Notes under the pieces: generated by a model
The model's input: only the letters and a program-made list of their open reading frames with translations
What the model was told of the DNA's origin: nothing
The model's database searches: none
Position numbers and translations under genes: made by a program
Assembly (NCBI GenBank): GCA_965645245.1
Contig: OZ287086.1
Location: forward strand, 124,001-188,000
DNA: 64,000 nt
Direction of reading: 5' to 3'
DNA from: Massalongia carnosa
Lineage: Eukaryota
Shown here: piece by piece, positions 1-49,700 of the stretch
How the letters are laid out: each line of letters opens with the position of its first letter
Numbering within the stretch: position 1 is the stretch's first letter

Positions 1-428
1 CTCTAGTAATTGGTAACCTTTCACGTTTCTCGGCTTCACCGTTCTTTCGCTTTATGCCAGTAAGGATGCGATCTAACACCGGGTGATGAAATACGTCGAG
101 ATTACCGAGGCCCATATCTATCTGGCATGATCTTATGCCCGTCAAGTAGCTCTTAATAGTTTTTGGTTGCAGGCGTCGTTCACCCAACGCTGCGATCCAC
201 GAAGACAGCGTCCGGATGTTGGCTGGAAATGGTGGCGCGTTGAGGTTTACCCTACAGTAAAGAACGTATCCCTTTCTTGCCGTTGTGTATAAAGATCTTG
301 TCTTAGTGGCCAGGCCCCACCAGAGGTATCGTGCTGCGATTTCGTCTAGAGGTACCTCACTGTACCAAGATGGGGGTGGATCGCGTCCTATATTGCTGAG
401 GGTAGAGCCTGAAACTGAGGGATTTTGT
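1..428 (-). CDS. Tyrosine recombinase, N-terminal part (partial, no start ATG)
   Basis: Hand translation: ...RYLWWGLATKTRSLYTTARKGY...FPANIRTLSSWIAAL...IKSYLTGIRSCQIDMG...RERLPITR. This is homologous to the YR at 40367-41530 (LVWHGHSADTRKGY...SYLAGLRSYHVD...RRLPISK). The frame is open to position 1. Confidence 0.85.
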
Positions 429-2004
429 CAGCCAGTTTCTTCAAAAGTCCTCTAGACAAGAGATCAGCAATATAATTTTCTTTGGATGATATCCATCGCG
501 CTTCTATCTGGATATCATGTAATGCAGCTAGCATTGTAATTGCCCGCAGGGCATGCATTGCTTGGCCTCGTATAGAGGTTTTATTCACTCCTTTCGTGAC
601 AGCGTAGCTATCACAATAGAGGATTAAATGACTACCCTTGCATATAGGTAGCCACTTTTTCATAGCTTGAAGAATTGCTGTCATTTCTTTGACGTTGATA
701 TGCTTTGCCCTAAGGCGCGTAGTAAAGCGTGTGCTAAAAGCCTGCCGGGCTGCTTGTATATTATGCAAATTTTGATCCTCGCTGAGGATAAAGCCGCCCA
801 TACCATATGAGCCGGACGCATCTGTCCATATTCTCATAGTATGTCTAGTACAGTTGAGCAGATGTATGCCATTCCATTTAGGTAGGAAATGATGCCACCA
901 TAGAAGATCAGCCCTCATGTCCTTGTTAAGATGGATTAGTTTAGAGGTTACGCTTGCCGTAGCATTGAAAAGACGGCGTAGAAAGGCTCTTCCTGGTTTT
1001 ACCACTCTGGCTGCAAAGCATAAGAATCCTAGAAGAGAGTCGAGTTCCTTCCTGGGTATGGCTTTTTTATTCAAAGCTGCCGATACTAGGGTCTTTGCTT
1101 TTAGTAACTTTTCGGAAGGCAAGCGTGCTTCCATGAGCGCGGTATCGATTTCAATGCCGAGGAAATCGCAAGTCGTTCCAGTTCTGTTCTTTTCGAGCTT
1201 GATTTTCATGCCAAGATCTTTACAAATGTTGTGGAAAACTTGATCAAACTTTTCAGCATCTGGTCCGGTGCTGACTATTATTAAAAAATCATCCAAGTAA
1301 TGAATAGCGTCTTTCCAACCACAGTTGTACAATATCCAGTTGATACCCTTCGCGAACAGATCAAAAAGGAACGGCGACGTTCTCAGCCCAAAGGGTAAGT
1401 ATTTATCCATCCAAAAGGAATCCTGCCACTTGAAACCTAGTAACCACCAATCGCTTTTTGCTACTGGTATGTGGCGAAAAGCGTCCGCAAAGTCTCTTTT
1501 AATAAGAATACACCCTGGCCCGCGTTGCTCAATCAACCTAATGGCTTCGTCGAAGCTGGTATATTCCAGGGAGCCCCAGTCTTCCGGTATGTGGTCGTTG
1601 ACTGAGCTACTCTCCGGATACGATAGATGATGGATTCGCCGCCAACCACCGTTAGCCTTTGGTACAAGGCCTAATGGGGAACATATAAAGCAAGAAGGAA
1701 TGTTGTTGACTTTCTCCAACCGATTACTAGCTATTTGTTCTTCGAGGTCATTGGTAAGAACTTCCGGTGCCTCATTTGCAGAGGCAAGATTATCGCTAAT
1801 AATGAGTTGATGTGGTCCTGTATAACCAACTTTGGCACCGTAGGTGATGATATCGATAATTGTTTGTGTGTAAGTGCGATCCGGGTGATTGGCCAAATGT
1901 TTCTCCCAGCCTTCTTTCTTCAATGGGCCCGGTGGGATCTTTGTTAGATTGTCCGTCAAGGTGTATGGAAAGGACTCCGCGATGGATAAGAATGGGGCGG
2001 TTAG
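388..2004 (-). CDS. Reverse transcriptase-RNase H (pol) of element A
   Basis: SPLGLVPK..GGWRRIHHLS, DFADAFR, LPFGLRTSP, YLDDF; RNase H WTDASG...E...CDS...NYIADLLSR. The frame is open from the codon right after the gag stop. Confidence 0.92.
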   Translation of the reverse strand, partial: LTAPFLSIAESFPYTLTDNLTKIPPGPLKKEGWEKHLANHPDRTYTQTIIDIITYGAKVGYTGPHQLIISDNLASANEAPEVLTNDLEEQIASNRLEKVNNIPSCFICSPLGLVPKANGGWRRIHHLSYPESSSVNDHIPEDWGSLEYTSFDEAIRLIEQRGPGCILIKRDFADAFRHIPVAKSDWWLLGFKWQDSFWMDKYLPFGLRTSPFLFDLFAKGINWILYNCGWKDAIHYLDDFLIIVSTGPDAEKFDQVFHNICKDLGMKIKLEKNRTGTTCDFLGIEIDTALMEARLPSEKLLKAKTLVSAALNKKAIPRKELDSLLGFLCFAARVVKPGRAFLRRLFNATASVTSKLIHLNKDMRADLLWWHHFLPKWNGIHLLNCTRHTMRIWTDASGSYGMGGFILSEDQNLHNIQAARQAFSTRFTTRLRAKHINVKEMTAILQAMKKWLPICKGSHLILYCDSYAVTKGVNKTSIRGQAMHALRAITMLAALHDIQIEARWISSKENYIADLLSRGLLKKLADKIPQFQALPSAI

Positions 2005-3159
2005 TCATTGCCTTGATGGGAGAGGCATCGAATTTGGGTTAGAGGGTTGATTTTTTCCATTTGTACAGTCCATCGCCCGATGTTGCTTTCCACATTTCTC
2101 ACACACATGTTGGAATCTACAATATACGGGACAGTCTTTGCCATAGTTGTATTTCTTACAGATAATCTTTTCGCCTGAGGTTTTGAAAGCCGTAGAATTA
2201 TCGTCCGGTTTTGCAAAGTAAGCGGACGGTTTCCGCACAAGATGCCTTTCCAAGGAATGGTCCATTTCTTTCCATCCATCCGGGTTGTCAATCCCGCGAA
2301 AGGCTCGAGATTTGTGGAAATTCAAATGAAAGATGCGAACCGAGTCCCAGGTGTAGAAGGCGTATAATGATAGAAGATGGTCCTGATAAGCCATGAAGGC
2401 TCTCATCAGGTTTATCTGGAGACCGGGGTGTGCAAAGTGTAGTAGTATCATCCAATATACCCCGAGACATCGTATCAAATGAACTATCCCTTTGATATCT
2501 TTTAAGGAGCCATCTTCTTCTCTCGTGGCGATTTCCAGACCTTCTCCGAGTTTGACGTATCTAGAGTTGGTTTGAACTCCGTCGATGTCGGTACATAGCT
2601 TGGTAATGTTGATTGGGTCAAACGTATTCTCGGAGATTTGCTTTATCCATATGGGCTTGATAGTGGGATATTCGTTCATAAGAGAAACAAAACGAGGATC
2701 CATACCTTCTGTATACAATGAGTTTGGTCGATGCGGTGGAAATGATGTCGGAAATAATAGGGAAGGCTGTTGAGCTGAGGCTACTGGCCCAGGGACCACG
2801 TCTCGGGCACGTGCTTGTTGGGTTTCGATATCCCGCCTAAGACTTACTCTTTCTCTTTCCTCGGCTTCCCTGCGGGACATTTCGCGTTGTGCTCTAAGTT
2901 CAATAATGTCATCAGGGGTGCGAGAACGGGTTTCCGGTATAACAGGCCCTTGTGAGGAGGAATTAAACGCTGAAGATGGAAGAGGGGAAGGTTGAGGATG
3001 GCTTTGAAGGGTTGCCGTGCTGTCTTGTGAGTCGGGTACTTCGACGTCTGGGTTGGAGTTGGCTAGATTTGCCCTAGCTCTAGTTCTAGTACGGGCTAGA
3101 GTGCTGCCTTGTGTGCGGGAGGTAGGCTTGGTGATTCTGTTGGAGATGCGGGTGGCCAT
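2005..3159 (-). CDS. Gag-like ORF1 of element A
   Basis: ATG at 3159 (MATR). Disordered and coiled-coil N-terminus, helical core, C-terminal CKKYNYGKDC...C...H..C..C...H zinc finger as in DIRS-type gag. Confidence 0.85.
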   Translation of the reverse strand: MATRISNRITKPTSRTQGSTLARTRTRARANLANSNPDVEVPDSQDSTATLQSHPQPSPLPSSAFNSSSQGPVIPETRSRTPDDIIELRAQREMSRREAEERERVSLRRDIETQQARARDVVPGPVASAQQPSLLFPTSFPPHRPNSLYTEGMDPRFVSLMNEYPTIKPIWIKQISENTFDPINITKLCTDIDGVQTNSRYVKLGEGLEIATREEDGSLKDIKGIVHLIRCLGVYWMILLHFAHPGLQINLMRAFMAYQDHLLSLYAFYTWDSVRIFHLNFHKSRAFRGIDNPDGWKEMDHSLERHLVRKPSAYFAKPDDNSTAFKTSGEKIICKKYNYGKDCPVYCRFQHVCEKCGKQHRAMDCTNGKNQPSNPNSMPLPSRQ

Positions 3160-3586
3160 TTTTGGAGGAGAGGGATTTGAATAGAGTAAATTTAAGTGTA
3201 GTGGTTGTATAAATTTGAATTGGGTGAAAAGAAAACGTTGCAAACAGTGCTATCAAAATGCTATGCTTTTTGATTGTCTTGAGATGTGAGATGATGAGGG
3301 ATACCGTCTGGGACCTCCTCTTTATATATCTTCTTCCTATTCTCCTTGTCCTACTCTACCATCCCAGTATGCCCCATGAACGCGGCCCATAGCAAGGCAT
3401 ACACAAATCCGAAACCTAACTGTCGTCCGAAGGATCGATGCGGTGCTAAGATCTCTATGCCGTGCTGAGACATCCTTATGGTGCTGAGACATCTATGCCG
3501 TCCGAGAGATCCATGCGGTGCCGAAATCAAAGCGGGAGCTGTCTCGATTAACGACGCACTAGCTCTCAGCATAGCCGAACTAGATA

Positions 3587-37065: not shown

Positions 37066-37703
37066 GCCGAGCTTCCCCCAGCAAGTCCTGAGAGCTTCTC
37101 CCACTTGCCCACCTGCATCGCCTGTTCTAGATTTGCAGATGTGGAGTTGGCTTTTGACGAGGCTAAAAAGCTAACCAAGTCAGTTTAGGAGCTTGTCCAT
37201 TTGAGATCCCGTTTGGGTCCAACCTGCATTTAGTGATAGATGTGTGGTAGATGTACAGGTCTTATGTGAACGACTAAGATATGTTCAGCCTTGAACACTA
37301 TGCCTTTTATTAAGTAGAAAGATACGCCTCGACTTCCATCAAACTCAATCATGACATAACCCGAGTCTTTCAATAACGGCTGACAAGATGCAACAATTTA
37401 ATGTCCAGCAATGTTCGGAGCGCTATAAGGTAAGATATCATGTCATCGTATATCACAAAGCGGATTAGTCATCATAACATTCAAGTCGTATTTGCGAGTG
37501 TTTTTTAAATCATTTGAGTTTCGTTTCGCTAGATAGTCTGGTACGAAAAAGATGTTTTTCCTCATCACAAAAACTTCAAGGATTCATAATGTCGGCTCAG
37601 TAAAGAAATAGTTGGGAATTAAACATGTAAAGGGCGCCTGACTTCGTTTTATCTCGTTGCATTTCCGCCAAGCCTCGCACAACTTCTAGCTTTTATTGAT
37701 ATC

Positions 37704-39728
37704 ATGTCGCAGCCTCTCGACACAACACGAGACCAATTTCGTTTGGTCACGATCTTGCCTCTTGGCCCAAATATATCCGATTCAGCACCAGTAGAATGTC
37801 ATCTGATGGCATTCTCTCTGACTGACGAGTTCTTAACGCCAGCGTACAGGCAATACTTGATCGATAAGGATGCGCCTGGAGCGTGGAACAATTCCCAAAT
37901 TTCTTCAGAGCTACCTCGTCATAAGGATGACCTTGACGATTGGATCCACGTTGCGCATCCTGATGACAATGCGACAACCTTTCTACCAGAATTTCGCTAC
38001 GAATGGGGGGACTACCTGGCTCTCAGCTATACATGGGGTGACCCAACTAACGTCCGCGAGATTCTTGTCAATGGCCAGTCGCTGATAATTACGCAGAATC
38101 TTGAGGCCTGTCTCAGAGCACTTCGGAGAAAGCATTACGTCAAAAATGGATGGAGGTTCTGGATTGATGCCATCTGCATCAACCAAAAGGACATTGTTGA
38201 GCGCGCAGGTCAAGTCAAAAGAATGCGTGAGATCTACACAAAAGCGTGGACGCCAATTATTTGGATCGGAGAGGAGACAGAGGATAGCCATGTTGCATTA
38301 GACCTTATAATAACACTTGCCAGCGAATACACGTCACGAGATGGGGTGAATCGATTGACAAAAACTCTCCACCAGAATCCACAGCACTTCGGCAGTGGTC
38401 GTTGGCGTGCCTTGAACGATATTGTGTGCCGCCGGTACTGGAGGAGGCTTTGGGTCCTCCAAGAAGCTACTCTAGGTCGAAACTCTAGTCCTGTACTTTG
38501 CGGCAACAGAACGCTCCCCTGGGTTCATTTCGCCGGTGCCTTCAATTTGATTTGCAATACGGATGAGGTCATCAATACGTTCATCACCAACGAACTCAAA
38601 AGCGCTTCTCGTCCCCTCGATCTCGTAATATGGTCTAATTTGAATAAGGTTATTGAGATCCAGGCTTTTCAAAAGTTACGCTTGGAGGGTGGGCGACCAA
38701 ACCTATTCCGCTTGCTATATTTCAGTCGTACTGCCCTATCTACTGATCCACGTGACAAGATCTACGGTCTCTTGGCTCTGATGGACGATTCATTAGCTAG
38801 TCTAATCAAACCGGACTACACTGAGACAGTAGAAAATGTATACCGTTCTTTTACACTCGACGCGATGAAGGCGACCGGATCTCTCGATATGATAAGACAC
38901 AGCATACCCAATACGGACTCCGCGCTTCCATCCTGGGTGCCGGACTGGGCCATTGAACGTGAGAGCACAGTCCTGACAATTAACGACAATGCCTTTGCCA
39001 CCAGTGGATCATCTCTTGCTTCAGTTCAAGCTTTGGCAGACCCCCAGTCAATCTCATGCAAAGGCTTTATTATAGACCGCTTTGATGGCATGGGCTGCCG
39101 GTGGACATGCGGTTGGTCTCCCGACTCAGTAGTCCCGAGCAAAGTTAGATCAAACCCCTACAATACCTTCGAGAAGATTCGTGAAGCGATCTGGAAGTCT
39201 ATGGTGGCGTGCCATCGCCTCCCCAGCGAATATTTAGGGTTAGATGCCGATTATGGCTCGCTGTTGGCAACACCGGTTCTGGCTACGGCAATCTTATCAG
39301 AACACAGCCCGATCAAGGACCTTGTAGGCAGTAACGTATTTGACTGGTGTGTAAAATTCCTGAAAGGCAACGCAGATTTCCATGTAGCAGGAAGGCGCAT
39401 GGAAGAATACTTCTGGAAGGACGTTGAGCCAGAGAAGATCGATGTCGTGCACCTGAGAGACGCACTGATGCAGAGAGATAGGGTAAACTTGGGAAGGAGA
39501 CTAGTCACCACGGAGAGAGGGCATGTTGGTATGGCACTTGAGACTGTGGAGAGAACTGACGTTGTGGCGGTGTTGCTGGGATGTAGCACACCCATGGTGC
39601 TAAGGCAATTCCAAGGAGATTCTGGATGCCTTAAATGGAAAGTCGTGGGAGAATGTTATTTGCATGGAATTATGAATGGAGAAGCTATGGAGTGGGGGTT
39701 GAAGACCCAGGATATTGTGTTGTGTTGA
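37704..39728 (+). CDS. HET-domain (het-6-like) heterokaryon incompatibility protein
   Basis: Intact 674 aa: YLALSYTWG, WIDAICINQ, ERAGQVKRMREIY, YWRRLWVLQE, TDPRDKIYGLL, LPSWVPDW, VVGECYLHGIMNGE. Confidence 0.93.
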   Translation: MSQPLDTTRDQFRLVTILPLGPNISDSAPVECHLMAFSLTDEFLTPAYRQYLIDKDAPGAWNNSQISSELPRHKDDLDDWIHVAHPDDNATTFLPEFRYEWGDYLALSYTWGDPTNVREILVNGQSLIITQNLEACLRALRRKHYVKNGWRFWIDAICINQKDIVERAGQVKRMREIYTKAWTPIIWIGEETEDSHVALDLIITLASEYTSRDGVNRLTKTLHQNPQHFGSGRWRALNDIVCRRYWRRLWVLQEATLGRNSSPVLCGNRTLPWVHFAGAFNLICNTDEVINTFITNELKSASRPLDLVIWSNLNKVIEIQAFQKLRLEGGRPNLFRLLYFSRTALSTDPRDKIYGLLALMDDSLASLIKPDYTETVENVYRSFTLDAMKATGSLDMIRHSIPNTDSALPSWVPDWAIERESTVLTINDNAFATSGSSLASVQALADPQSISCKGFIIDRFDGMGCRWTCGWSPDSVVPSKVRSNPYNTFEKIREAIWKSMVACHRLPSEYLGLDADYGSLLATPVLATAILSEHSPIKDLVGSNVFDWCVKFLKGNADFHVAGRRMEEYFWKDVEPEKIDVVHLRDALMQRDRVNLGRRLVTTERGHVGMALETVERTDVVAVLLGCSTPMVLRQFQGDSGCLKWKVVGECYLHGIMNGEAMEWGLKTQDIVLC

Positions 39729-40366
39729 CGGTTCTCACATCTATGCTGAATTAAATACTCATCGTCTAGATCAGTCTATATGCTGCGCTGCTGTTGAGGT
39801 AGCCCATGGAGGCTACCAGATGATGCTCTCCCAATCAGTTGCTTCAAACATCGAGATGTCAAAAATCAACCCCGATCTTACTTCCATTAGGTTTGCTTGA
39901 TTCTTTCGCTTTTGCCAGAAACCACTATAAGTAGTTCGTAAAAGCATCTGTAATCGCTATGAAAATAGAAAGATCTAGCATGCAGATCTGGTGAGAAGCT
40001 TGAATCGAGCAAAGATAGAGCAACATTTTTTCTCCTACGTTCGCACTTGAATTCTACTGCATACATAATCTCAAATTATCTACATCATCGGGAAATCGGG
40101 AGATGACTAATAGATCTTGATGATCTATGACCCTTATCGGTGCCGTTACCTTCGCTTGCGCTGGTGGGGGCTTTTAATTGGATGAATTGATTTGAATGCT
40201 TGAATTTGATTGGGCATGGGAACGACACAGGTCAGCCCGGGCAGGCCTAGGCACGTGACTCGGGGTCGGTGCTGAGGTGAGAACCTCATCTTCTAGGCCC
40301 GAGGCGTCTGCTGACGCTCAACGATCCGATAGATGATGCCCGACGGCAGTGCCCGACGGCGATGAT

Positions 40367-41530
40367 CTAGATGGAGGTGCCCGGCGGCGCTCCGGATCGA
40401 TGCCCTGGTTGACCTGTACGCCCAATGGAATGCCCAATTGAGTAGGGGTAGGAGTTTGTAGGATTCGTCTCGGCGACGACAGCACGTGGGACTGCCAGAG
40501 GGATGCCTTTTTGAAAACTGAGGTTCAAATTGAATAGTGAGGCCTGGGACGTCTGAAAGTATAGCTGAAACGCGTTTGATGACCATCTTCCGAGTCTCTG
40601 AATACTCTCGTCCAGCATCCCGTGGTCGGCGGCGTGTTGTGCTGCTCCTTTTCTGAAGCTGTGTCCCGAGTATGCCGATTCGTTGATGCCGGCGGCTATC
40701 AGTCTCTTTTTCAGGGATGCTCTGACGGAGGCTCTGGTGAATGCGGTGCCGAGACGAAAAAGCGGGGATGTAGATGGCTGAGGATCATTTCTGAAAAGAC
40801 GCCGTAGTGCTGTCACGGGGCAAGTGCTCTCATTGGTCGCTGCCAGCACTATCTGAACTCCTGAGTGATTTGTGTCTGTTTTGCTTCTTTTGAGACGTAA
40901 TGTCGCGTATTGATCGTTCTCGGCGAATGAGATGTCACCTCGTGTAGGTTTCAATCTCTGAAAAGATGTCTTCTTACGATCGGCGACAGTGTCGGTGATT
41001 TCCCCGAGTCTGAGGAACCCTGCCCATGCAACTTTGAATGTCGCGTCGATGTTGAGGTCTTCGGCCGAATGAGCGGGAATACTGGTGATTTTTGTCAGTA
41101 ATTCTTTTGAAATGGGTAGGCGTCTTCTTTTTGTCTGAGAAAAGATCCTTTTTCCCCCTTTCAGCATCAATTGAAGTCTCGGCCCCTCGAATGGGGTGAG
41201 GCCGTATCCTCGGTCTACATGGTATGATCTGAGGCCGGCGAGGTAGCTCGCTGCCGTCTCTGGTTTTATCTTTCCCTGCTTGGGTGTGCCGCCCCCGTAT
41301 AGTCGACCGGCTAGCCATTCCTCGAGGGACTCGGTTGTTGCAGGCCACGACGTGCGTCCCGTCGTCGCGCAGAATGCCTCGTATGAGTCGATCGCCGTCC
41401 CGTACCCTTTTCTCGTGTCCGCCGAGTGTCCGTGCCAGACGAGGCGTTTTACCAGGGCTGACCCTGGTGTGGAGGATAGGTAGGTGGAGGGAGGTTCATC
41501 GAATTGTATGGGTTCTGCCAATGAGGGCAA
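40367..41530 (-). CDS. Tyrosine recombinase of element B (no early ATG)
   Basis: FLRLGEI, LKRSKTD, CPV, GHSFRKG, GRWSSNAFQLY give the R-K-H-R-W-Y catalytic set. Confidence 0.93.
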   Translation of the reverse strand: MPSLAEPIQFDEPPSTYLSSTPGSALVKRLVWHGHSADTRKGYGTAIDSYEAFCATTGRTSWPATTESLEEWLAGRLYGGGTPKQGKIKPETAASYLAGLRSYHVDRGYGLTPFEGPRLQLMLKGGKRIFSQTKRRRLPISKELLTKITSIPAHSAEDLNIDATFKVAWAGFLRLGEITDTVADRKKTSFQRLKPTRGDISFAENDQYATLRLKRSKTDTNHSGVQIVLAATNESTCPVTALRRLFRNDPQPSTSPLFRLGTAFTRASVRASLKKRLIAAGINESAYSGHSFRKGAAQHAADHGMLDESIQRLGRWSSNAFQLYFQTSQASLFNLNLSFQKGIPLAVPRAVVAETNPTNSYPYSIGHSIGRTGQPGHRSGAPPGTSI

Positions 41531-43194
41531 AAGTTAGCCAATCTTTCATCATCAAAACGTGACAGGGCATCTGCTAGTCCATTGGAAGTGCCACTGATCC
41601 ATTGACAACGTAGTACGATGTCCCACTTTGCAGCTATGGACAGTATTTCTCGTAGAGGCGCGTTGGCCGGTCCCTTGAGGGTTAGATTCGTGAATCCTGT
41701 GTATGCTGTGTTGCTGTCGGTAAAGACAAGGATCTGTCGATGTCGCCATGTCGGCGCCCATTTCTGAAGGATTAGAGGGATAGCCTCGACTTCTCGGACG
41801 TTTATGCTCGGTGATTCTTCCTGATTGACTAGGACTCGGGCCCTACATGCGTTTTTTTGATTCACGAGCTCGTTGTCTTGTTGAAAATAGCCTCCGAGAC
41901 CCGTGAGGCATGCATCCGTATGCACCTTGATCGTGTCTCGTGTTGACGTCTCGAAGAAGACAATACCGTTGAAGTCCACTAAAAGTTTGTTCCACTAGAT
42001 GAGATCCTGTCTGACCCATGTGGGAATTCTTCTTTTGACCCGACGATGACTGCCCGAGGGAAATGAGGCTATAAAATTCCAGAATAATCGTAAGAAGACT
42101 CGGCCCAATTTGACTGCCTGTGCGCAGAAGCTTAGGAAGCCCGCTATTGACTGCATGTCGCCGAGGCTGATTGTCGTCTCGTTTAGTGCCTTTGTAGTGA
42201 TGATTCTCGCTTTTTCCAGCTTGTCCGCTGGCAGACGAATAAGACTGTTGATGGTGTCGACCTCGAGTCCGAAGACTGTCGCTGTCGTTCCCTCGGCGTC
42301 TTTTGAGTCGTTTCTCGGGATGCCGAGAATGTCGGTGAGAATGTTGTAGGCTTTTGTTTCTTGGTGCAATCGTTCTGACGATGTCTCGGATGGGAAAATT
42401 GCAACGAAGTCGTCTAGATAGTGATGTAATCTCCATTGTAGAAAGGATTCCAAAATCCAATGAAAGCCTTCCGCAAAAAGATTGAAGATGAACGGGGCCG
42501 TCGACAGTCCGAACGAAAGGCATGTCTCGGTGTAGAATTCGTCATTCCATCCGAAACCCAGAAGCCATTGATAATGAGGTGCGACGGGAACGTTTCGAAA
42601 GGCGTCTTTGACGTCTCTTTTCACTATGACAGCACCTTTGCCCTCTGACAGAATCAATTGAATAATGTCGTCGAGTCTGGCGTATTGTAATTTGGATGCC
42701 TCTTCTGGAATGTTGTCGTTGACTGATGTTTGATTGGGATGAGACAGATGATGAATGCGTCGTCATCCTCCGTCATGTTTCGGGACCAAGCCGAGGGGGG
42801 AGGCCACAAATGGCTGACTCGGGGCGGCTATTCGTCTGACTCGGCCCTTCCTGAGGTCCTCTTGAAGCTTATTCTCGATCGTTTCCGGGTCCTCATTCGC
42901 TGATGTCAGATTTTTTTCGATCCGAAGGATGTCTGTGGGGCCTTCGTATCCGATTTGTACTCCGAAACGAAGGATCATGGGCAGATGGACTCGGAGGGGG
43001 CCCGGATACTCTTGAAGTAGGGTTGCCCATGCGGACGGTACGAGGGGAGATGGGCTGTCTTTCAAACGCTGACGAGATGCGTCTACGAGTTGAAACGAAG
43101 GGATTGTATTTGGTCTGATTGGTGCAGGTAAGCAGGGATGGGACGTCATGAATTCAGCTATTGAAGCTATTCTACTGCCTCCTGCACCAACCCC
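41449..43194 (-). pseudogene. RT-RNase H (pol) of element B, one frame with two Trp>stop lesions
   Basis: ORFs 42763-43149, 41995-42657 and 41449-41979 share one frame. Stops at GG*RRIHHLS and DLI*WNK. YLDDF, HTDAC, NGLADALSR. Confidence 0.9.
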
Positions 43195-44232
43195 CTATTT
43201 CTTCGTTGGGCATGTCTTCTGGCCATGCCCAGCCGCGCCGCACGATTTGCATTTGTGCTGTCGGTAGCACGACGGCCAGGTGCAGGTGCCGCTGTTGTAC
43301 TTGTCGCAGATTCCCCCCGCTGCCTTCTCGGCCCTCTCGGCCCTGTCTCCTCTCGGGGTCGGTCGTCGGGACGGCGGGGATCGTGAGCGGCGACGGCGTA
43401 GGACTGTGAGGGGGGTGCAGAATCGAGCTTGGACTTCGTCGGGCATTTTCCATTGGGATGCGTCGGATGGCTGAGACGCGATGATGTGGGTGTGGGTTTC
43501 GATGGCGAGGGGGAGGACTGCTTCCTGCCACTCGTACACCTTGGCCAGCGTGAGGATTTTTCCGTGGAATGCCGACATGGTGGCGTGAAGCTGTTGACTC
43601 GATTTCCCGAAAAGACTGACCATGATCGAGGTGTAGTTGATGAAGCTCTCGGTCCAGACGTCATGAACTGTCTTTCCGAAATCTTTGTAGGTCCCGGATG
43701 CCTTTCTCAACCTCAAGGCGCCGTCTTCGATGCCGATGCGGTCTTGATCCTTGTATGACTCGTATTGCATGCCGTGCATGTGTCGGAGGCGGGAGAGGTT
43801 GATGGCTTTGAATTTATTTGAAAAGATCTTGATGATCTCGTCCTGTGGTAGGCCGGCGAAACGGGGTGCTATACTTCTTACTTCGAGAGGGATCTCACCT
43901 AGGTCCTCGTCGTCATCGCCGACGACACGACTCGGCTTGCCAGCAGGAATGACGGCCGCTATTCGGGCGTCAGATTCTCGGCGCATGCAGTCGATTTCTA
44001 GCTGCATTTTTTCCACCTCCTTCTCGGCGACCAATGCCTTGGACTCGGCAATTCTAGCCTCAGCCTCGGCCGCCTTCGCTTCCGCCTCGGCTTTCTTCTT
44101 TTGCAGGGCGAAGATTTGATTGGATTGGGCCTGCGTCAATCCGACAATCTCCTGGGGGTCGGGGACTATGTCGTCCATCAAGGTGCTTTGGGAACGGGTG
44201 TTCGTCATTGGGAGGTAGGGGCACCGAGACAA
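43195..44232 (-). CDS. Gag-like ORF1 of element B
   Basis: Coiled-coil N-terminus, core homologous to gag A, C-terminal CDKYNSGTC...C...H.C..C....H finger. Confidence 0.85.
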   Translation of the reverse strand: MSRCPYLPMTNTRSQSTLMDDIVPDPQEIVGLTQAQSNQIFALQKKKAEAEAKAAEAEARIAESKALVAEKEVEKMQLEIDCMRRESDARIAAVIPAGKPSRVVGDDDEDLGEIPLEVRSIAPRFAGLPQDEIIKIFSNKFKAINLSRLRHMHGMQYESYKDQDRIGIEDGALRLRKASGTYKDFGKTVHDVWTESFINYTSIMVSLFGKSSQQLHATMSAFHGKILTLAKVYEWQEAVLPLAIETHTHIIASQPSDASQWKMPDEVQARFCTPLTVLRRRRSRSPPSRRPTPRGDRAERAEKAAGGICDKYNSGTCTWPSCYRQHKCKSCGAAGHGQKTCPTKK

Positions 44233-44337
44233 CGTGAGGTCGACGACGAGTCAGTGAGATTGGAAAAGCAGCAAGCACTGACAGCGAGGTAGGGGCACCG
44301 AGACAACGTGGGGTCGACGACGAGTCAGTGAGATGGA
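44212..44337. repeat. ~52-bp direct repeat (2 copies, 74-bp period) at the start of gag B
   Basis: GAGGTAGGGGCACCGAGACAACGTG(A/G)GGTCGACGACGAGTCAGTGAGAT at 44212 and 44286. Confidence 0.9.
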
Positions 44338-44894
44338 TGAGGCCGAGTGAGAAGAAGTGAATGAGGAAAGAATTTTCAGAGGGTGATTCTTAATTTACTT
44401 TGACTCAGGGGCCTCACGTGACATAGAACCATCTCATCTTTTCTGCAGGCTTCTTGTGTTTCGCTTGTTCGAGCCACTTTTTTTTCTGTCTTCGATAACC
44501 GCAGCAGTTTAGAAGACATGAGTTTGTAATGTGATTATAAGGAAAATTGGTTGCAAGTTTACGAAGTGAGAGTCATTTGAAACGAGCTTGATTAAGGCCC
44601 CGTTTGTGTACAGCGTAGATAGCCCGCTTCCTCCGGTAATTTTCGACGTTACACCATACACTTTTGGTGGTGTTTTGTCCGCCATGCCGGCATTTTTGGA
44701 CCAATTGTACGATTCTACTCTTGAGGCCGTTTTTTTGGGCCATTGCCTCCTACGCAGAGGATTAATAACGATATACAGTTCAATTCAAGGAATCGGCGCA
44801 ATGCGTCAAGTCTCTACGGCGAGTAATGGATGGAGCAACTGCTCGATCAGCGCCATACGAATCGATCTACGACAACCTTCGCATGGATCGCGAG

Positions 44895-45530
44895 ACGACA
44901 TCTTTGCTGTCTCTACGTTCGACCTACAGTTCAGCTACGTTCTTGCTGGATGGGAGGGCTCTGCGCATGATGCGCTAGTCCTTAAGGATGCCGTCTCCTA
45001 TCATGGATTGAGGCTCCCTCCAGGGAAGTACCTCCTTGCGGACGCTGGATACTCTAATACGGAGCACACCTTGGTGCCGTTTCGGGGCACGAGGTATCAT
45101 CTCAAGGAGCAGAGGCTGGCTGGAGAAAGGTAAGATCTACAGTCTATATGGATGGTGCTAATGGTCTATAGGGCCAATCGTCCAAGGAGCTGTTCAATCT
45201 CCGCCACTCCTTTCTCCACAACGTCGTCGAACGGATCTTTGGGATCTTTAAGAGGAGGTTGAAGATTCTACGGAGCGCGCCTGAGTACCCAATACGGTCT
45301 CAGGTTCACCTAATCTACGCTCTAACCGCAATACACAACTATATACGGAGGAAGCTGGGCAGGAGGCGCTGGAGACTGGGCTGGGTGCGGAGGAGCTTGA
45401 CCTTGGCGCACACGAGGGTCAAGAGGCTACAAGAGAAGGATCTATGTCAACAAGGATGGGCAGACTACGGGATGAAATGGCAGAGAGGATGGGGGACTAC
45501 GTGGATGTGGTGTTTGCGGGGGAGGATTAG
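44895..45530 (+). pseudogene. PIF/Harbinger DDE transposase, C-terminal fragment
   Basis: VLAGWEGSAHD, YLLADAGY, YHLKE, intron 45130-45171, ELFNLRHS..HNVVERIFGIFKRR, IHNYIR. Confidence 0.85.
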
Positions 45531-46794
45531 GATATATTATAGATCTATAGAAGTTATTGAAGTCATCATAGCCTTTATAATGACCTTTTTGTCTTCCGCG
45601 CTCTTGAGACTTTTAAAAAACAGTTGCGTTATTGAGTACACTGGGAATGGCCTCACGGAGGCGAAAAAGGAGGATATGACTTTATCAGGCTATGCGGCGA
45701 CAAATGCCATCTACGGCGTATCCAAACGCGGACTAAATTCTTGATTATGCAAGCTAGTTAACTTAAAGTAAAAGGCAACATTACGCGAAAAAAAACTCAG
45801 TCTCACCCCGATCCTCGCTTAGAGACTGTCAACCTGCGAGGAGAATACTATGGTTAGGTTAATATCGTTTTTTGCCTAACTAACTAGTTGTTGATCAATG
45901 AATGCAAACTTACTTCTTTAATGGAAAAGATCCCTTATCGCAATGCTCTTCTCTCCGCTTGATTCATATGTTTTCTGTGCTTTTACTATTCTGCTATGTT
46001 TCCTCTTTCCTTCTAAGATCATTAACTCTGTGAGATGCATATGTCAATATCTCTCTGATACTGAAGAACTAATATTGATAACTGTGAAGTTCACATACTT
46101 CTCCGCTTCTCCAGGATTTTTCTTGTAACTGACTTTCCTGTCTTTGCATTTAGTGTCGATTCCTTGAACTCTCATAATGCTAATCCGAGTTTTCATGTTC
46201 CGCGATGACAATATCTAATCTACGTTAGATAAAGACATTGAAGACAATCTTTTTCTTTCACTCGAAGTTCTCTGGAATGTTTCAATGCGAAAAAGCTAAC
46301 AATCTTCCAGAAGAATCGGCTGGAATTCAAGCAGATCGAATGATAAAAAGCACTGCTAGCTTGCTACATTGATATCTCTCAGTCACAAGCTCCTCCCTTT
46401 CTTCAGATAGTATCTCGCTCCGCGCATAATTCTCCTCAAAAGAAAACAGAAGACTCTCCTGAAAAGCAGCTTCATATGAAGCAACGCCGAAAGAAATCAT
46501 GGCTGAGGGAGGACTTGATATCAGGAAGGGTTTCGTGGCTACCTCCAGTAGTCGTATGACATTCTCGTGAGATTTTCTTAATGCCTTCAGCGACTTGTCG
46601 TTAACATTACTCTTCTCCTCATTATTCAACAACCACTGCAACGTTTTCTCGTAACCTTTCCTCAGTGCCTACAGCAAGCTGTCGTTTACGTTCGCCCCTT
46701 TATCCAACAACCACTGTACCATCTTCTTATAACGTTCCGATGATGCCGCCTCTATCGCGCTATAATTAAAGGTGTATCCTCTTTCCAATCAACG

Positions 46795-49700
46795 CTAAAT
46801 CAGCATCTTGTGATCTTCCAACAATGTTGTCTCCAGCACCTTGTCGTTAAATTCCGCCCCGTTATCCAACAACAATTGCACCACCCCGTCGTGACCACTC
46901 GATGCTGCATCCTGCAGCGCACTGTCGCTGACTTTCGCTCCGTTATTTATCAAGAGCTGCACCACCTTCTCGTGACCACTTATGCATGCCTTCTGCAGCG
47001 CGCTGTCGTTAACTTCCGCCCCGTTATTTATCAACAATTGTATCACCTCCTCGTGACCTTCAAATGATGCCGCCTGCAGTGCATTGCCATATTCTCCGCC
47101 TTGCACGTTGACGTTCGCCCCGCTGTCCAACAACCACTGCACCACCTTCTCGAAACCTATCCAAGATGCCGCCTGCAGCGCATTGCCATACTTTCCGCCT
47201 TGCGCGTTAACGTTCGCCCTCTTATTCAACAATAATTGCACTATCTTTTCATGACCTTTCGATGATGCCGCCTGCAGCGCATTGCCATGCAATCCGCCTT
47301 GCGCGTTAACGTCGGCCCCGTTATTTATCAACAACTGCACCACCCTCTCATGACCTTTCAATGATGCCGCCTGCAGCGCATTGCCATGCTTTCCGCCTTG
47401 CGCGTTAACGTTTGCCCTCTTATTCAACAACAATTGCATCACCTTCTCGTGACCTGTCAATGATGCCGCCTGCAGCGCATTGCCATGCAATCCGCCTTGC
47501 GCGTTAACGTCGGCCCCGTTATTTATCAACAACTGCACCACCCTCTCATGACCATTCAATGATGCCGCCTGCAGCGCATTGTCATACTTTCCGCCTTGCG
47601 CGTTAACGTCGGCCCCGTTATTTATCAACAACTGCACCACCCTCTCATGACCTTCCCATGATGCCGCCTGCAGCGCATTGCCATGATGTCCGCCTTGCGC
47701 GTTAACGTCGGCCCCGTTATTTATCAACAACTGCACCACCCTCTCATGACCACTCAATGATGCTGCCTGCAGCGTATGGCCATACTTTCCGCCTTGCGCG
47801 TGAACGTCTGCCCCCTTATTCAACAACAACTGCACCACTTCCTCGTGACCATTCAATGATGCTGCCTGCAGCGCATTGCCATGATGTCCGCCTTGCGCGT
47901 GAACGTCTGCCCCCTTATTCAATAACAACTGCACCACCTCCTCGTGACCATTCAATGATGCTGCCTGCAGCGCATTGCCGAACTTTCCGCCTTGCGCGTT
48001 AACGTTCGCCCTCTTATTCAACAACAATTGCATCACCTTCTCGTGACCATTCAATGATGCCGCCTGCAGCGCATTGCCATGCAATCCGCCTTGCGCGTTA
48101 ACGTCGGCCCCGTTATTTATCAACAACTGCACCACCCTCTCATGACCTTTCAATGATGCCGCCTGCAGCGCATTGCCATGCTCTCCGCCTTGCGCGTTAA
48201 CGTCCGCTCCTTTTTTCAACAGAATCATGATAATAGAAAGATGACCGTTAACAGCTGCAATCTGTAGCAATGATATATCTTCTTTATTACGTGTCTCTAC
48301 ATCGAAAACCGCCGTTTCCCACCAATCGGATAGGATTTTATTGAACCCAAACGCCGATACTGCCAGCAAAGTCGATGAAGATGGACTGAGCAGATCATAA
48401 ACTGTATAGACCAGAGTACCATATAAACCGTATATATTAAAAATGTCTCCATAGTGTATATCATTACCTATCGTTTCACACCAACTCTTATATGCAGGGC
48501 CACTTTCGTTATGGGATCCAAGGAATTGCTTTAAAATTATCGATAAACGAGAATCAATACTTTCTTCCCCGTGGTTTTGTACGTGATCTGCCCAAAAAAT
48601 TCTTGCATAACGAACAATGTCGTTCAATACTTTGTTTCCGTCTTGCGACTCTGTATCCCGTTTTTGTTGAATCGGGTCATTCAACAAAGACAGACATACT
48701 TTCGCTATGAGAGCATTCGCATCATGAGAACTCCAGTGTTTTTCCAAATACTCCTGGACAGATAAGTGGGAAAATCGACAAATATTTGAATCCACAACAA
48801 TTAGGTTCTGACAAGCGTCGAGAACAAAATCGATGTCGATATCCACAGCGTCAACGACGTCCGTGTTGGGATCTTGACAAACCGCAGCGACTAGTGCTGC
48901 CGGCGATAAGGGTTTCGCGGAACACATGATCCATTGGAATGTACGGTTGGCAATATCGGGCGCACTTCCACCTTGAGTCTGAATTCTTCGATATATTTCA
49001 TCATATGTCGCGGCGAGATCCTTGGGGAGTTTGCCTAGTCGCTCTTCAATATCGCTTTTACGGGGGGGAAGTTGATGTAGTTGAATAATCTGAAGTGATG
49101 CCCACTGAAACCTATTCTAATCTTAGAGGGAGATCAACATAGCGGCCGAGATTTATAGAAACTTACATTCCGTCGCTTTTGCTCACTAACGTCTCGGAGA
49201 TAAGCTCTCTAAGTTCGGAACTTATTTTGCAGTACCACCCCGGTTTATCGGTGATCTTGTCGTCGACAAACTTTGCTATGTCTTTCTCATTATCCGTTGC
49301 TTTGATTTCCATGTTTGGTCCACGATTAAGTCGGTGTTTGATATCTAGATCTGGCCGGCTGGAGATGAAAACTTTTACCAAGTTAGAAGACTTGCCGCTG
49401 ACCAAGTTGTTCAACATTTCCATGAAAGAGGCTCTCATTTCCTTGTTGCACTCATCCAAAGCGTCCACAACTAACGTGATTTGTGGATAAATTTCCGTCA
49501 GCTGAAGAAGAAGATCGAAACTTTCCTCAATCTTGAGCCCTCCTGAGGCAAAGCCATTTCTTTGTGCTATTTCATACTTTTGAACGACTGGACGCTGAAT
49601 CGTGTTAATGCTTTCGACCCCTGACAGTTGTCGGACAAAGCTGCTCATTATTAGGGATGGGTCTCGACGATTAGACTGATTGCGATCGCAATAAAAGTAG

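Follow-up and report, generated by a model that had tools for sequence, protein, structure and literature searches.

Passages of two studies (PMC3783388, PMC6681497) describe the expression of the recombinase in tyrosine recombinase (YR) retrotransposons only in terms of "frameshifted or overlapping" open reading frames (ORFs). A survey of the fungal elements (Muszewska et al. 2013, PMC3783388) states in the pertinent portion that YR can be encoded either in frame or with a frameshift, and for the Ngaro group excerpts of two sources describe a YR frame that is shifted against pol and overlaps it (PMC3783388, PMC13465315). Here we analyse element B, a YR retrotransposon on the minus strand of a 64,000-nucleotide (nt) stretch of Massalongia carnosa DNA (assembly GCA_965645245.1, contig OZ287086.1, positions 124,001-188,000 of the forward strand). 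This stretch is called the window below, and all positions refer to it. Element B resembles Ngaro elements in its gene order of gag, reverse transcriptase (RT)-RNase H and YR, and has no methyltransferase, protease or DDE integrase.

A first-pass annotation had suggested that an intron of ~2.4 kb removes the gag core and pol from element B, fusing the gag coiled coil to the recombinase. Conserved signals, intron phases, open frames and joined ORFs support this suggestion, and we consider it likely that the family makes its YR as a spliced fusion of the N-terminal part of Gag to the recombinase, Gag(N)-YR; that the spliceosome uses these sites in vivo is what we infer from the comparisons below.

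Splice signals in element B and its relatives

The YR frame of element B opens at a stop codon inside GCTAAC on the minus strand (41538-41533), as the annotation had it, and its first methionine is residue 123, which bears out the claim that the frame has no ATG for more than 100 codons. The CAG at 41517-41515 does lie in phase 1 of this frame. The proposed donor in gag, CTAG/GTGAGA (the slash marks the exon end, at 43899), is also in phase 1, falling after the first base of a GGT codon. Joining 43899 to 41514 in silico kept the frame and reproduced the expected junction ...EDL-EPIQFDEP.... Like signals had further been claimed at homologous positions of element A, a divergent relative elsewhere in the window, and there we located the donor, a CTGAC and phase-1 CAGs. 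Taken alone, the signals of element B make a weak case, because its 4.36 kb hold four GTRAG sites and four branch-point-plus-YAG sites (R, purine; Y, pyrimidine); it is the relatives that carry the argument.

Relatives of elements A and B were found in soil-metagenome contigs of fungal appearance. An alignment of 26 YR homologues, used to scan metagenome contigs, gave 80 related loci whose YR is 35-54% identical to that of element B and, in many cases, preceded by RNase H and gag. Together with elements A and B they form 28 lineages at 70% YR identity. Background frequencies were taken over 360 kb of sense strand, which held 0.95 GTRAG and 2.86 CTRAY..YAG per kb. The first-pass annotation had asked whether G/GT in gag and CTRAC-n-YAG at the end of RNase H are conserved beyond what amino acid constraint explains; across the 80 loci and elements A and B, the answer was positive.

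For the donor, we searched for GT[AG][AT]G in a 165-nt window around the site homologous to 43899. A phase-1 donor was present in 24 of 26 elements, compared with two in phase 0 and none in phase 2. One of the two misses (L043) is a decayed copy that reads GAT AAG, and the other (L017) has CAG/GTACGC in phase 1 at the homologous site. The split codon is GGT in 22 cases, AGT in two and CGT in one, and thus encodes Gly, Ser or Arg; the next codon is GAG (17), AAG (6), ATG (1) or ACG (1), encoding Glu, Lys, Met or Thr. Among 16 lineage representatives, G at +1, T at +2, a purine at +3 and G at +5 are found in all 16, A at +4 in 14 and G at -1 in 13, with +6 free. Since the residues at the donor vary while the GT.AG bases are kept, selection appears to act on the bases. 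In every case the N-terminal stretch of Gag that directly precedes the donor is helical and acidic, and the conserved Gag core starts a few residues beyond the donor. An AlphaFold2 model of the exon-1 peptide of element B, computed from the single sequence, has one long helix (residues 26-86; pLDDT blocks of 80-96) between disordered tails.

For the acceptor, we required CTRAY followed by YAG 8-32 nt further on, within 120 nt upstream of the conserved YR N-terminus. A phase-1 acceptor was found in 63 of 66 elements and in 28 of 28 lineages. The background predicts ~7.6 elements per phase (2.86/kb); the control phases gave 7/66 (phase 0) and 23/66 (phase 2), the excess in phase 2 being due largely to the LADALS codons conserved in RNase H. 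The three elements that lack a phase-1 acceptor have an internal deletion (L021), are decayed and frame-shifted (L044), or have changed TAG to TAA (L056).

In 40 elements, here termed the overlap clade, acceptor and pol C-terminus (...A[ND]xCPHWQ) share sequence. CTRAY is kept in all 40. Its T is the third base of the codon preceding Asn or Asp, and this base is T in 40/40 (GCT 31, ACT 8, TCT 1) although the residue varies among Ala, Thr and Ser. Four-fold sites nearby vary freely: a Ser codon eight codons upstream is TCA (14), TCC (9), TCG (8) or TCT (8), and the Pro codon of CPHWQ is CCT (18), CCA (15) or CCC (7). The Gln codon that supplies AG is CAG in 37 elements, and CAA, TAG and TAA in one each. 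At the pol site that holds these signals in the overlap clade, clades in which pol and YR do not overlap lack CTRAY and read CAA. The acceptor is independent of pol, since in phase 1 it persists in four settings without overlap between YR and the pol C-terminus: ~330 nt beyond the pol stop in L006 and L010; in a clade with TACTAAC-TCTTGCAG, where pol and YR are separated by ~250 nt; in L001 and L003, with pol-to-YR frame relations of +1 and 0; and in the L030 clade. Together, the patterns at donor and acceptor indicate that both splice signals are under purifying selection at synonymous sites, and that their conservation across the family is far above background.

The layout of the overlap could also be read as a programmed -1 frameshift or other recoding at the end of pol, giving Gag-Pol-YR, with the splice-like motifs as by-products of overlapping coding. 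In most lineages YR does overlap pol and uses its -1 frame (46 elements have an overlap), pol conservation ends at the CAG just where YR conservation starts after it, and in two related proteins, P0065 and P0279, RNase H and YR share one frame. Yet a canonical slippery heptamer, X_XXY_YYZ, occurs in the overlap of only 3 of the 46 elements, and there away from the conserved spot; on this ground we rejected frameshifting as the general mechanism. Nor can a -1 frameshift serve clades in which the frame relation is 0 or +1, or in which a gap of 230-330 nt with stops separates pol from YR, and these clades still keep the acceptor. Frameshifting also leaves the conserved phase-1 donor in gag without a reason, and provides none for a T that is fixed at a synonymous site and by which the YR frame gains a stop immediately upstream. 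We regard this explanation as very unlikely.

Alternatively, YR could come from a subgenomic transcript of its own, through an internal promoter in RNase H, or from internal ribosome entry, with translation starting at an NTG four codons before the CAG. Gene callers begin nearly all YR ORFs at that codon, which is ATG in L008, L009, L011, L012, L041 and L032 and GTG, TTG or CTG elsewhere. But its TG is forced by a conserved pol Cys codon (TGY), ATG is not conserved (element B has TTG), and clades without YR-pol overlap have no such codon. The gag donor, the matching phases and the fused ORFs described below (P0180 and P0235) would go unexplained, and we give a separate YR transcript or internal entry a small probability.

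Joined reading frames

Both sites occur in one copy in 19 elements, and joining them in silico leaves an open frame in all 14 that are undecayed. Ten of the joined frames (element B, L001, L005, L007, L009, L018, L026, L030, L038 and L058) run from an ATG to at least 302 YR codons. Two (L008, L012) have no ATG, two (L020, L027) have an exon-1 frame that reaches the 5' end of the contig, and that of element A is cut by the window. The decayed copies with both sites (L024, L046, L066, L072, L073) have stops everywhere. Across these elements, the predicted exon 1 comprises 57-219 codons from the first ATG and exon 2 302-382 codons, with an intron of 2291-2691 nt.

A protein search with the element B YR and a profile search of 1.84 billion representative proteins between them yielded three GagN-YR ORFs that are contiguous in public assemblies: P0180, P0235/P0283 and P0021. 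The joined form thus exists as nucleic acid, in public contigs whose molecule type is unknown. P0180 (324 aa, on a contig of 2222 nt) has a helical N-terminus ending in an acidic run, joined to YR. Its 90% identity to the unspliced ORF P0079 starts exactly at the Gly codon after the predicted acceptor; before this codon, P0079 has intron-side residues and P0180 the helical stretch. P0235 and P0283 are 513 aa each, on contigs of 3850 and 28229 nt. Their N-terminus is homologous to gag exon 1 of element A (E 6e-07), the local match stopping 4 nt before the donor of A, and from the DPPxSWY motif onward the YR of P0235 is 48% identical to that of element A. In P0021 (375 aa, on an 11-kb contig), the Gag N-terminus ends in ...DEDDIL, where the donor of element B lies.

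Further searches for spliced forms gave none. Residues 1-66 of P0021, used as a query, matched only themselves; gag residues 1-82 of L018 matched 18 proteins, all plain Gag; and none of the 12 loci in which no RNase H match precedes YR was a spliced form.

The splice sites could be real without the spliced RNA being the source of active YR, if that RNA were a regulatory by-product by which genomic RNA is lowered, the outcome of a splice imposed by the host, or a non-autonomous parasite of the full element. The joined forms on the 28-kb (P0283) and 11-kb (P0021) contigs, which suggest copying back into DNA, are in keeping with such a role. Against it stand the open joined frame in 14 of 14 undecayed elements, a YR that has no conserved start codon of its own, and signals kept at synonymous sites in 28 lineages; we judge it improbable that the spliced RNA is only a by-product of this kind.

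Structure, copies and surroundings of element B

The ends of element B and its copy variants were determined from contigs of four public runs (X1, X2, X5 and X6; Logan contigs, kind unknown), in which depth within the element far exceeds that of the flanks. Coordinates are collected in Table 1. The pol product matches the Pfam families RVT_1 (E 1.1e-12) and RT_RNaseH (E 9.6e-07), both above cut-offs. YR, which is in the -1 frame relative to pol and overlaps its last 85 bases, has 335 homologues in a protein search; residues R175, K218, H291-x-x-R294, W317 and Y325 are invariant in the alignment of 26 sequences, and Pfam Phage_integrase matches at E 2.8e-4 and 21.1 bits, under the curated cut-off of 27.1. 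No integrase, protease or methyltransferase family of Pfam matched in element B, and the YR frame opens within the last RNase H codons. With RT and RNase H, a YR instead of a DDE integrase and no protease, element B is a tyrosine-recombinase retrotransposon, and it is Ngaro-like in having no methyltransferase domain between RNase H and YR. It has neither the methyltransferase nor the inverted terminal repeats, with their internal complementary region, that mark DIRS1-like elements. Element B has no long direct or inverted terminal repeats, the sole inverted match being of 20 nt at 85%. A search for split direct repeats (A1 ... B1 A2 B2) returned the two 49-nt repeats of the 5' region and, otherwise, only short similar stretches near both ends.

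Table 1. Positions of element B, element A and their proposed splice features in the window
Feature	Position	Strand	Remarks
Element B, multi-copy YR retrotransposon, ~4.3 kb	40124..44437	-	Run contigs depart from the window sequence at about these positions
Element B, Gag-like ORF	43195..44208	-	ATG 44208-44206; stop TAG 43197-43195, then pol in frame
Element B, pol (RT, RNase H)	41449..43194	-	Same frame as gag
Element B, YR frame	41533..40367	-	388 codons, opened by TAA 41536-41534
Element B, private stops in pol	TGA 42765-42763, TAG 41997-41995	-	TGG codon in all four runs
Element B, 5' untranslated region: pair of 49-nt direct repeats (74 nt apart)	44212..44334	-	
Element B, proposed exon 1, coding part	43899..44208	-	gag ATG to first base of the split GGT; 103 residues and one base
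Element B, proposed 5' splice site GTGAGA	43893..43898	-	Exon end 43899 (CTAG/GTGAGA), phase 1; intron starts 43898
Element B, proposed intron, 2384 nt	41515..43898	-	Covers the core and stop of gag and the whole of pol (RT and RNase H)
Element B, branch-point motif CTAAC	41533..41537	-	Branch A 41534; YR frame begins after the TAA stop of this motif
Element B, proposed 3' splice site CAG	41515..41517	-	A YR codon begins with its G; intron phase 1
Element B, proposed exon 2, coding part (YR)	40367..41514	-	382 codons, stop 40369-40367
Element A, divergent	1-3250	-	YR truncated by window start
Element A, proposed exon 1	2706..3159	-	gag ATG 3159-3157 to split GGT; donor GAAG/GTATGG, exon end 2706, phase 1
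Element A, branch-point motif and acceptors	409..431	-	CTGAC 431-427; two phase-1 CAGs ending at 415 and 409
Element A, recombinase exon start	2..414	-	Truncated by window start

Because of its two private nonsense changes in pol, the window copy of element B cannot make RT or RNase H. It also lacks three bases (GAG) at 41826 that are present in all four runs. The joined GagN-YR frame is intact despite the broken pol. Among other copies, the number of 49-nt repeats seems to differ, one contig of run X2 skipping 59 nt (joint of 44213 to 44273). One X2 contig joins 40424 to 44262, that is, the 3' end of YR to the 5' region, skipping 3837 nt without GT..AG ends, so that nearly all coding sequence is deleted from that copy.

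An in-frame stop between gag and pol was found across the family, and Gag-Pol is probably made by programmed readthrough. A single stop separates gag and pol in one frame in element B (43195-43197), element A (2005-2007), L001, L009, L018-L021, L025, L026, L030 and L038. After the stop, many relatives read CAA TTA, CAA TCC or CAG CTA; stop and next codon are TAG GGG in element B and TGA CTA in element A. A stop followed by CAR-YYA is the readthrough context of the tobacco mosaic virus type.

Many loci are AT-rich and dense with TAA and TAG (L024, L029, L039, L043-L046, L050, L052, L056, L060, L065, L066, L068, L072-L077 and L079), and such loci stem from a few metagenomes. They look like products of repeat-induced point mutation, with splice motifs that are often still recognisable. 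L019, L025 and L051 hold head-to-tail tandem copies in which the next gag follows ~500-600 nt after YR, an arrangement that typically arises when an element inserts by recombination into a copy already present. In L021 (2300-2400), an internal deletion fuses RT (at about residue 171) to YR (at about residue 30). Tandem 24-nt repeats lie between pol and YR in L050 (3560-3700) and L060 (2530-2670), and in other members of the same clade (L043, L046, L052, L066, L074) the C-terminal segment of RNase H is duplicated ~250 nt downstream.

Adjoining the 5' end of element B, a broken PIF/Harbinger-type transposase in two frames (44570-45744, plus strand) matches Pfam DDE_Tnp_4 (E 8.1e-07). The host genes that flank the element encode a HET-domain protein (PF06985, E 2.6e-28) and a long ankyrin-repeat protein (37623-39728, plus strand, and 46798-49116, minus strand). 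HET-domain genes are typical of filamentous ascomycetes, and their pairing with ankyrin-repeat genes is typical of the non-self recognition gene sets of these fungi. Fungal Ngaro elements are placed mostly in Mucoromycota and Basidiomycota in the relevant passages of PMC13465315; unlike that host range, the window that carries element B has a HET-domain gene.

Proposed expression and known systems

We propose that the full-length RNA would be translated into Gag and, by readthrough of the in-frame gag stop, into Gag-Pol. Part of the RNA would be spliced from the phase-1 donor G/GTRAG, which directly follows the long helix and acidic tail at the N-terminus of Gag. The phase-1 acceptor, made up of CTRAY, a short pyrimidine-rich stretch and YAG, is placed where the YR frame begins. 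This would take out ~2.3-2.7 kb, with the Gag core, the stop of gag and both RT and RNase H. Because the splice would join YR to the gag AUG, a YR frame without an AUG of its own would be translated: synthesis would begin at the gag AUG and continue into YR. The predicted product is a Gag(N)-YR fusion of ~400-570 residues, 485 in element B.

We infer that the fusion would act as the recombinase and that the Gag helix would bring it into the particle. The first-pass annotation had raised such targeting as well. In its full form, which we advance tentatively, as a possibility below even chances, the fusion would be the normal active YR, the helix would co-assemble with Gag and so package it, and the spliced RNA would sometimes be reverse-transcribed, seeding gagN-YR elements such as P0283. 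A YR packaged through the helix would be carried with the RNA and the complementary DNA, a role like that of the Gag-Pol fusion for retroviral integrase. The spliced RNA would keep both ends of the element, and short non-autonomous gagN-YR elements (for example P0283, on its 28-kb contig) would arise from it.

Several points weigh against a spliced Gag(N)-YR as the general source of the recombinase. Element counts overstate independence, since related elements share ancestry; lineage counts (28 for the acceptor, 15-16 for the donor) are fairer. An intron of ~2.4 kb is long for a fungus. No joint of 43899 to 41514 was found in the contigs of the four public runs, the kind of these contigs being unknown. 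The fused ORFs, known as called ORFs only, could be deletion derivatives or assembly chimeras. The junction of P0235 cannot be placed to the residue, and that of P0021 enters YR ~40 codons further in instead of at the canonical acceptor, a position compatible with an alternative AG downstream that keeps the phase. Finally, P0279 and P0065 carry YR in frame with pol; a splice is therefore not the sole design among YR retroelements and may be limited to part of the wider group. In P0065, P0279, P0232 and P0187, RNase H and YR form one continuous frame or the protein is a very long gene model (1222-1593 aa).

The portions of the literature covered by our search, which did not extend to early Ngaro and DIRS papers (e.g. 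Goodwin and Poulter 2004), gave no account of YR mRNA splicing in Ngaro or DIRS elements. The splicing that appears in the consulted part of PMC7192593 is that of artificial marker introns. Subgenomic splicing that fuses a Gag domain to the recombinase of a YR retrotransposon therefore seems to be new, although an earlier mention is possible.

If the proposal is correct, a conserved splice explains, for a large fungal family, how an often start-less YR frame overlapping pol is translated, and retrovirus-style subgenomic splicing arose also in a third class of retrotransposons. It would further provide a testable model for the arrival of the recombinase in the particle. Annotation pipelines that call ORFs and ignore introns would mis-start these recombinases, and the conserved pair of splice signals would serve as a simple diagnostic of the family.

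The env mRNA of avian leukosis and sarcoma retroviruses is spliced from a donor inside gag, so that env borrows the gag AUG and first codons, and the intron removes gag and pol. The proposed YR mRNA is like it in that one primary transcript is put to two uses, the donor lies in gag and the downstream protein borrows the gag AUG. Unlike the avian case, the borrowed part of Gag would here be a whole domain of ~60-220 residues (long helix and acidic tail), the downstream gene would be the recombinase that inserts the element, and the host is a fungus. Foamy viruses express pol from a spliced mRNA, and work of Oberlin and colleagues from 2017 reportedly describes a spliced gag-only RNA of copia-type elements. 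As proposed for the YR family, splicing in these systems sets a protein ratio or expresses a downstream enzyme apart from Gag, but their splices are not known to fuse a Gag domain to an integration enzyme, and neither is a tyrosine-recombinase element. Human L1 gives rise to spliced integrated retrotransposed elements (SpIREs), and its splicing is regarded as harmful to the element. The fused ORFs P0283 and P0021 may likewise be spliced RNA copied back into the genome; the YR family differs from L1 in that its splice signals appear, from their conservation at synonymous sites, to be under purifying selection.

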